A stretch of DNA of 64,000 nt, taken from positions 1,426,001 to 1,490,000 of the forward strand of contig JAYWIR010000036.1 in NCBI GenBank assembly GCA_036172245.1, written 5' to 3'. The position numbers and the translations under genes are program-made. Of this stretch, positions 47,844 to 49,328 are shown in pieces; the first letter of the stretch is position 1, and each line of letters opens with the position of its first letter. The notes beneath the pieces are model-generated. The model did no database searches, was not told where the DNA came from, and was given only the letters and a program-made list of their open reading frames with translations. The DNA comes from Raillietiella orientalis (taxonomy: Eukaryota).

Positions 47844-47968
47844 TCAGTCGCAGAGGTGGTGGTACGTGTTGCAGTTGGTCTTGCAGCAGCGGCGCCATTT
47901 CTCCAGGACGAACCGCTTGGACGGCCGGTACCAGAGACTGGGGAAGATCCGCACCAGGAAGCGCCTCC
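47844..47968 (-). CDS. Insulin/relaxin-superfamily prepropeptide, exon 2 (end of C peptide, A chain)
   Basis: CTCTCTGTCTCGTTGTAG acceptor with matching phase 1. Reads (G)RRFLVRIFPSLWYRPSKR-FVLEKWRRCCKTNCNTYHHLCD*. AATAAA on the minus strand at 47738-47733. Confidence 0.78.
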
Positions 47969-49099
47969 CTACAACGAGACAGAGAGGCGGCATCCCGGCT
48001 TTTTTGTTGGTGGTGGTGACGTCGTTTTCCTCCTCCCCCCTTCTCCCTCCCTCCTCCTTTCCAACACCCTCTCTTTCTTCCCTCCTCTTCTTCCTTCTCT
48101 CTCTCTTCGATCAGACGACCAGATAATCCTCTTCCTCATCCGCCGCGGAGCCTTCACTAGAGCCGTGATGGAGAGATTTGAGAGACGGAGACGGCGGAGG
48201 TGGAGGGAGGGGAGTGACCTCGTTGCCTAGGAGAAAAAGACAGGGGAGACACGCTTCGCCTCCATCGAAGCCATTCGAAGGGAGGTCGCCCTTTTGAGAA
48301 CAGTCTGCCGACCTCACTCCGGCAGCCACAGTTGCTCCTCTTGGGTCCCCTCTACCCCGTCTCGATAACCCCCGGACAGAAATGTGCTCTTTCGCCCTGT
48401 GGGGCGGCCTCTTGCAAAACGCCGCACCCCTTGCAGCTTCGCCCCTCTCCAGACGGAACTCCCCTCACCCCTGTATTCACATTCGCCAGTTCAGGGCGGC
48501 GGTGGACCGGGGACTGGGAGGGAGGCGGAGAATTCTCCTAGCATCCACCTAACTTCCCTTCTGCTCATTCAGACTCCTCGAGGAGCCCCCGGGTTTGCCT
48601 CTTTCAGCGCTTCCTCCAGTTTCTCTCGCGGCTCCCGAACTCACTTGAGTGTCTGTCATCCGTGCGCTCGAGGGAAGACCGCGGAATGGAGGAGTTCCTT
48701 CTCTTCCCTTCCCTCTTGGTTCGTGTACTCTTTTGCCTCCGTGACCGAGCCATTGGTAGGGGAGCGTCCAGGTCTCCAGCACATGTTTGGCTCGAGAAGA
48801 TGCTCCGGGAACGCTTCTTCCTTTCTCTGAAGCTCCTCTGGAAGTTCGACCTTCCCCGAAAAAGGTCCGACTCTCGCGACTCCTCGTTTCTGGACTCCAG
48901 CGTCCAGGAGCAAGGGAAAAAAGCAGGAGGGACACAGGAGCGACCCAGGGTCTGACTGTCTGGAACACTTTGGAATCGAGCTGGTTTGCCGTTGGGACGC
49001 GCTCCCTGAGGAAAGGTGGGCCCGAAGTCCGCCTCTTCAAAGTGGGAGGAAGGAGCATGGAGGCAAGGGAGGAGGGAAGGAAGAGATGCGAGGGATTAC

Positions 49100-49328
49100 C
49101 TGAAGAAAGCGCCGATGAGTCACGAAATCTGGTCGGCCCTGTCTTGAGGCGGTGGCCGCTGCTCCCGGCTTCGTGAGGGGACGAACCCGCGGATCTCTTC
49201 ATCATGGAGCATTTCTCTATGCGGAACTCGTCTATGTCGAAGGCAGTAGTGCAGGAGTCATTCCGTCCTTCGAGGAGAGCGGCGACCATGCCGATCACGA
49301 TGGCGCGGAGCACAATGACCAAATCCAT
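49100..49328 (-). CDS. Insulin/relaxin-superfamily prepropeptide, exon 1 (signal peptide, B chain, start of C peptide); complement(join(47844..47968,49100..49328)), 117 aa
   Basis: MDLVIVLRAIVIGMVAALLEG hydrophobic signal, RNDSCTTAFDIDEFRIEKCSMM, then a KR site. CAG|GTAAT donor, phase 1 (229 nt). TATATAAG on the minus strand at 49503-49496. Confidence 0.75.

Follow-up and report, generated by a model that had tools for sequence, protein, structure and literature searches.

An intron of phase 1 within the C domain is described as characteristic of insulin genes in parts of PMC8286064, and passages of PMC8698791 present the cysteine framework of the hormones, Cx11C in the B chain and CCx3-4Cx8C in the A chain, as conserved. 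The glycine that follows the first B-chain cysteine is likewise described as conserved in sections of PMC8698791 and of bioRxiv 10.1101/769497. For the gonadulin type of insulin-related peptide found in arthropods, which includes Drosophila Dilp8, portions of PMC7357564 (Veenstra 2020) report that members escape annotation, only the cysteines and the layout of the gene being conserved, and part of its main text adds that the cysteine spacing differs among the arthropod peptides. Here we examine a stretch of 64,000 nucleotides (nt) of Raillietiella orientalis contig JAYWIR010000036.1, hereafter the window, whose minus strand carries an unannotated locus with about an even chance of being a real gene whose product is a divergent prepropeptide of the insulin superfamily, similar to gonadulin/Dilp8.

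The original prediction for this locus, made from the letters of the DNA alone, was a hidden two-exon gene in the order signal peptide, B-like chain, Lys-Arg (KR) site, connecting peptide, second KR site and A-like chain, with a phase-1 intron inside the connecting peptide, and our analysis supports that layout. A scripted join of exon 1 (49328-49100, 229 nt, opening with an ATG at 49328) to exon 2 (47968-47844, 125 nt including the stop) yielded 354 nt that translate into 117 residues, six of them cysteines, followed by a stop, and thus reproduced the predicted exon coordinates, GT-AG borders, phase and length. Exon 1 encodes a hydrophobic N-terminus, then a C-x13-C segment ending in CSMM, and then KR. 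Exon 2 contributes the second KR, eight residues, the motif CC-x3-C-x6-C, a single Asp and the stop, so that the last cysteine is the penultimate residue. The first B-like cysteine is followed by Thr rather than Gly; both the spacing and the missing Cys-Gly motif are as had been predicted.

The proposed donor that closes exon 1 (CAG/GTAATC, the slash marking the exon border) agrees with the consensus at seven of nine positions and is the best among 11 phase-1 GT dinucleotides, and the acceptor (...CTCTGTCTCGTTGTAG/GG, with its AG at 47970-47969) lies behind a pyrimidine-rich tract. Two further phase-1 donors, after 49187 (CGG/GTTCGT) and after 49124, would leave the B-like and A-like parts the same and shorten the connecting peptide. 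By arithmetic, the predicted splice places the intron of the C domain in phase 1 in the proposed model and equally with both alternative donors. The introns of a serpin gene elsewhere in the window run from GT to AG with pyrimidine tracts, the same kind of sites as those of the candidate. Within the proposed intron, each of the six frames contains between three and eight stops and has strongly negative codon scores.

The signals that flank the coding parts are consistent with this model. The TATA box upstream and the AATAAA downstream that the original prediction had named are both present, at the distances given in Table 1. The stretch from the TATATAA at 49503 to the ATG at 49328 is free of any other ATG, and this TATATAA is the only one on the minus strand between 16 and 60 kb. 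Over those 44 kb of GC-rich DNA the minus strand holds five matches to TATA[AT]A and five to AATAAA, one of each being suitably placed for the small gene. An A[AT]TAAA shortly past the stop was also found in some other genes of the window.

Open frames alone, including an open reading frame (ORF) of 259 residues that starts at the ATG, mean little at this locus, because the window (~60% G+C) contains 371 stop-free stretches of at least 90 codons. A codon log-odds model was trained on eight confident exons of the window, drawn from the serpin gene and from a number of ORFs in which a barrier-to-autointegration factor (BAF) domain is weakly recognizable. The G+C content of these exons at the three codon positions is ~0.57/0.40/0.86 (0.57/0.41/0.86 for the serpin exon). 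The corresponding values for exon 2 are 0.45/0.475/0.95, with G or C in 38 of its 40 third positions, and those for the read-through of the ATG ORF, which covers about the first half of the intron (48552-49100), are 0.585/0.62/0.525. Under the model exon 2 scored +12.3 bits; of 49,172 stop-free windows of 40 codons that lie outside the training exons, only 0.075% rank as high. The signal and B-like part, encoded by codons 1-44 of exon 1, scored +7.8 bits, a level in the top 0.26% of 45,565 windows. For both of these segments the proposed frame is the best of the six. Since the cysteine codons lower the exon score, exon 2 reaching 16.2 bits once they are removed, the codon evidence is independent of the cysteine motif. 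We also considered a plus-strand gene as the source of the high third-position G+C (GC3) of exon 2 and rejected it; the plus strand scores +8.1 against the +12.3 of the minus frame, and stop, motif and signals all belong to the minus frame.

The cysteine motif is itself rare. The window has a single instance of CC-x3-C-x6..9-C ending no more than three residues before a stop, whereas 200 simulations under a local Markov model gave 0.03 on average; when a dibasic pair 3-12 residues upstream was required as well, none of the 200 simulations contained the pattern. The best 11-residue Kyte-Doolittle mean of the N-terminus is 2.9, a value matched by 2 of 280 first-ATG ORFs. Taken together, these rare features make it very likely that the locus is a real gene, and it is probably a small two-exon gene of the kind that ordinary gene finders would miss.

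In its general layout the candidate resembles the canonical insulins, insulin-like growth factors and relaxins (PF00049). It has their order of signal peptide (here a predicted one), B, C and A segments, a KR site at each border of the C peptide and a phase-1 intron within it. Its cysteines follow the insulin order C..C / CC..C..C, one pair ahead of the first KR and the remaining four behind the second. The CC-x3-C spacing is shared as well, as is the position of the last cysteine next to the C-terminus. On this basis, insulin-superfamily membership is plausible but unproven, with the chances evenly balanced. Crustacean insulin-like androgenic gland factor (IAG), which the original prediction named as a possible relative, is an insulin-superfamily precursor whose sequence is poorly conserved.

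Judged by pattern, the closest resemblance within the superfamily is to the fast-evolving gonadulin/Dilp8 type. We compared spacing and sequence by eye with the 43 gonadulin sequences in supplement 2 of PMC7357564, which covers arthropods and has 49 gonadulin rows, six of them marked 'Not found'. The two B-chain cysteines are separated by x11 in 22 of these peptides and by x12 in 21; the distance from CC to the next cysteine is x3, x5 or x7, with x3 in most; and the last A loop is x8 in 26, x10 in 13 (scorpions) and x5 in four (flies, including Drosophila Dilp8) (PMC7357564). Most of the 43 have no Gly after the first B-chain cysteine (PMC7357564). The pattern C-S-x-x-K-R is found after the second B-chain cysteine in six, from Cimex, Halyomorpha, Tetranychus, two Pardosa and Timema, and the Periplaneta peptide ends in C-D (PMC7357564). 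Decapod gonadulins are basic, without acidic residues, just before the CC of the A chain, where the third residue upstream is always Arg, and their introns are exclusively of phase 1 (bioRxiv decapod gonadulin preprint). Insect gonadulins vary at the positions immediately before CC (PMC7357564).

The likenesses to the candidate are those of a group with six cysteines in insulin order, a very variable primary sequence and, for the most part, no B-chain Gly. Gonadulins share with it a B span that can exceed x11 and, in flies, a shortened last A loop. The dibasic site of the candidate comes a few residues past the second B-like cysteine, and its CSMMKR is an instance of C-S-x-x-K-R. Some gonadulin genes have two coding exons, and the introns are in phase 1. 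The C-terminal C-D of the candidate is that of Periplaneta, and, as described for decapods, basic residues (RR) precede CC and none of positions -1 to -3 is acidic, though position -3 is Trp and not the decapod Arg. The suggestion in the original prediction that the peptide may be gonadulin/Dilp8-like fits best, given that most gonadulins are without the B-chain Gly, their spacing is variable, CSxxKR is common among them and their introns are in phase 1.

With regard to spacing, the x3 of the candidate lies inside the range of the 43 gonadulins, its x13 is one residue above that range, and its x6 is an unrecorded value between recorded ones. The original prediction had regarded this reciprocal shift, a longer B span and a shorter A loop, as a novelty. 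By sequence comparison it is not a new principle, because fly Dilp8 already has the spacing x12 / x3 / x5 (PMC7357564). Dilp8 shows that a change in this direction is tolerated in nature. A more specific version of our reading, namely a hormone of the gonadulin/Dilp8 type whose cysteine framework (B x13, A x3/x6) is unrecorded and whose GC-rich lineage lacks close relatives in the protein collections searched, is put forward tentatively.

Several observations weigh against an assignment to the insulin superfamily. The x13 and x6 spans depart from the Cx11C and the final x8 of the canonical CCx3-4Cx8C framework, neither value occurs in any of the 43 gonadulins, and the Gly at the B8-type position is absent. 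By a simple geometric argument of ours, a longer B span should not compensate for a shorter A span. At position -3 before CC the candidate has Trp in place of the constant Arg of decapod gonadulins. The last 32 codons of exon 1, which would encode the first part of the connecting peptide, score -11.8 bits and look non-coding. The segment between the two B-like cysteines, which should hold the B helix, is by our reading rather acidic and only weakly amphipathic.

Database searches add to these points. Profile, sequence and fold tests were run on the two exon halves separately, and they gave no profile or sequence similarity to members of the insulin family. The peptides and ORFs of exon 1 and exon 2 had no Pfam match at E<=10, and the exon peptides none among Protein Data Bank (PDB) sequences at the same threshold with phmmer. 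The 259-residue ATG ORF found no homologue among 1.84 billion representative sequences. For the exon 1 peptide we found no near-length homologue, and for the exon 2 peptide (region 46-87 of its 87-residue ORF) no homologue. Metagenome contigs gave no match to either exon 1 or the 65-residue exon 2 ORF, and a protein atlas gave no usable match to the latter. Among 128 ORFs of at least 90 residues between 39 and 64 kb, none matched Pfam. No paralogue was detected within the window by tblastn or by a relaxed A-chain pattern, and nowhere else in the 64 kb does an A-chain-like motif look coding. These blanks weigh little, since a BAF-like ORF of 140 residues in the same window also lacks a near-length relative, which makes the lineage seem poorly represented.

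Structure prediction gave a mixed result for the insulin fold. With AlphaFold (AF2), the exon 2 peptide was modeled as a helix through the CC pair, a loop and a short helix, at a predicted local distance difference test (pLDDT) score of 77-78, which is the outline of an A chain but no proof of one. The only helix of exon 1 was at residues 3-19, in the signal; from a single sequence, and at a pLDDT of ~52, no helix was predicted between the two B-like cysteines. Fold searches with the 40-residue model of exon 2 found no match in the PDB, although the model is too small for one to be expected. Layout and phase-1 intron fit an insulin-family peptide; the canonical spacing and the Gly are absent, and the profile, sequence and fold searches gave no hit.

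Three other explanations have to be weighed against this reading. The locus may hold no functional gene at all, its frames, cysteine pattern and signals coinciding in GC-rich DNA or being the relic of a dead gene. The abundance of long ORFs in all six frames favors this, as do the freedom with which the splice was chosen in the original prediction, the poor codon score of the connecting-peptide portion of exon 1 and the uniformly blank homologue searches. We nevertheless consider it quite unlikely, given that several mutually independent rare features coincide (the motif, the codon scores, the signals and the N-terminus) and that the three-base G+C periodicity of exon 2 is unexpected in non-coding DNA; the blank searches are weak evidence when even a BAF-like ORF with a Pfam match has no near-length relative. 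It is also conceivable, but very improbable in our judgment, that exon 2 really is a terminal coding exon but of a different transcript, with its upstream exons in another place, so that joining it to the ORF at 49328 would be a mistake. Exon 2 is indeed the stronger of the two exons by codon score, and the donor is not fixed. On the minus strand from 47968 to ~60.6 kb, however, no other stretch scores as high as the signal and B-like part, which moreover opens with the first ATG after the TATA box and has a signal-like N-terminus, and exon 1 offers three donors of matching phase.

The third explanation accepts the gene and is the most serious of the three, if still somewhat unlikely: a real secreted, KR-processed cysteine peptide precursor that merely mimics the insulin layout, with neither insulin ancestry nor insulin fold. 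All of the evidence that the gene is real applies to it equally. Both spacings fall outside every value of the canonical insulins and the 43 gonadulins, the profile, sequence and fold searches gave no insulin link, and no helix is predicted in the B-like part. A CC-C-C framework is found in small toxin-like or antimicrobial peptides, for example the alpha-conotoxins, and as in these a 22-residue CC-x3-C-x6-C peptide could form both of its disulfides internally, with no partner chain. KR cleavage would then free separate peptides, one of 22 residues with a single disulfide (C-x13-C) and one of 22 residues with CC-C-C and two internal disulfides, an outcome we hold to be rather doubtful. CC-x3-C, on the other hand, is the exact insulin value, and the gonadulin resemblances (CSxxKR, basic residues before CC and the C-terminal C-D as in Periplaneta) also speak against mimicry. 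Outside the insulins, no peptide family is known to us in which a signal and a two-cysteine segment are followed by two dibasic sites, with a spacer interrupted by a phase-1 intron between them, and then by CC-x3-C-xn-C directly before the stop. Precursors of the alpha-conotoxin type lack a B-like segment with two cysteines and a second spacer flanked by dibasic sites, and are not known to have a phase-1 intron in the corresponding position.

If the candidate is a prepropeptide of the gonadulin/Dilp8 kind, its splicing, secretion, cleavage and disulfide pairing would be expected to follow the pattern of the superfamily. The two coding exons would encode a secreted prepropeptide of ~88-117 residues, its length varying with the choice of phase-1 donor. 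After removal of the signal peptide, prohormone convertases would cut at both KR sites and free the connecting peptide, and the B-like chain with its two cysteines would stay linked to the A-like chain with its four. Two disulfides would hold the chains together and a third would lie within one chain, the arrangement of the insulin superfamily. As for receptor and function, which we infer by type, portions of PMC7357564 state that peptides of the gonadulin/Dilp8 type act through LGR-type receptors.

The candidate adds to a known and notoriously variable kind of peptide and is not a new kind; its main interest lies in the unrecorded spacing and in its detection without homology. Intrinsic signals, including codon periodicity, a signal peptide, dibasic sites, a phase-1 intron and motifs for promoter and poly(A) addition, can flag a gene of this sort that has no homologue. 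Should the assignment be correct, the 13 / 3 / 6 framework would show the insulin scaffold to be more tolerant than is known so far, the fold accommodating a B span two residues longer together with an A helix two residues shorter, and it would provide a natural test case for the co-variation of B-chain and A-chain lengths. If, in addition, the host is not an arthropod, the known range of the gonadulin/Dilp8 branch would be widened. Were the peptide instead unrelated to insulin, its precursor would have arrived at the insulin layout by convergence.

Table 1. Features of the candidate gene, in positions of the window.
Feature	Position	Strand	Basis or remark
TATATAA, candidate TATA box	49497..49503	-	175 nt upstream of ATG
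Start codon and signal-peptide-like N-terminus, residues 1-21	49266..49328	-	Kyte-Doolittle; AF2 helix 3-19
B-chain-like segment, residues 22-43, C-x13-C, ends CSMM	49200..49265	-	Codon score of residues 1-44
KR dibasic site after B-like segment	49194..49199	-	Sequence
Connecting peptide, first part, to proposed donor; coding status uncertain	49100..49193	-	Score -11.8 bits
Proposed intron, 1131 nt, GT...AG, phase 1, polypyrimidine tract	47969..49099	-	Sequence, codon scores
Connecting peptide, second part, start of exon 2	47919..47968	-	Within 40-codon stretch, GC3 0.95
KR dibasic site before A-like segment	47913..47918	-	Sequence
A-chain-like segment, 22 residues, CC-x3-C-x6-C-D and stop	47844..47912	-	Motif, codon score, AF2
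AATAAA, candidate polyadenylation signal	47733..47738	-	106 nt after stop

Close to the candidate, an inverted pair of 142 nt (49857-49998 and 54629-54770, 98% identical) encloses 4.9 kb of DNA, and this segment starts ~350 nt upstream of the TATA box. The pair may represent the terminal repeats of a DNA transposon.

The composition of the window, ~60% G+C with a GC3 of ~0.86, is unusual for arthropods, the group to which the original prediction had assigned the peptide. CpG is not depleted outside the AT-rich parts (observed/expected 0.9-1.0), TpA is strongly depleted (0.3-0.5), and AG/CT dinucleotides are in excess over the whole window. The preferred codons are CTG, AGG, TCC, GCC/GCG and GGC, and introns in the window measure 1-5 kb. 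Introns of that size, the BAF-like domains, the divergent serpin and a reverse transcriptase remnant point to an animal or something closely related, and the undiminished CpG speaks against a typical vertebrate. Purine-rich low-complexity sequence had pointed to a coccidian parasite, a source that we rejected since the codon choice (CTG, AGG), the BAF-like domains and the use of TATA and AATAAA are more like those of animals. Outside the animals, an insulin-like gene would be improbable from the outset. Scans of the window for Rfam families, tRNAs and tandem repeats returned nothing.

The serpin gene that contributed to the codon model is divergent and lies on the plus strand (29393-29800, ~32825-32965 and ~38195-38831, with introns of ~3 and 5 kb). 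A long open stretch precedes its serpin domain, and its best PDB relatives reach only E 2e-11. The window also holds a cluster of high-GC3 ORFs at 412-825(+), 1515-1910(+), 4070-4489(+), 13312-13731(-), 15891-16286(-), 18002-18289(-) and 21211-22215(+). Three of these match the Pfam SAM_BAF family weakly, near the cut-off (E 4e-6 to 7e-5), and the cluster constitutes a divergent local gene family without a near-length relative in a word-indexed protein collection.

BAF-like ORFs are present on each arm of a perfect inverted repeat (1060-4543 and 13258-16741), whose arms of 3484 nt are 100% complementary and separated by 8714 nt. Arms this identical could mean that the palindrome arose very recently or that it is an artefact of the assembly. 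Within the spacer of this palindrome, the region ~6000-10000 has 34% GC, is strongly depleted of C on the plus strand (GC skew +0.41) and shows a CpG observed/expected ratio of 0.5-0.74, which looks like one-strand C-to-T decay. Finally, coding-like stretches at 23180-24369 include a match to RVT_1 at 23762-24085 on the plus strand (E 4e-6, below the Pfam cut-off), and this region is a reverse transcriptase remnant, probably of a decayed non-long-terminal-repeat (non-LTR) element.

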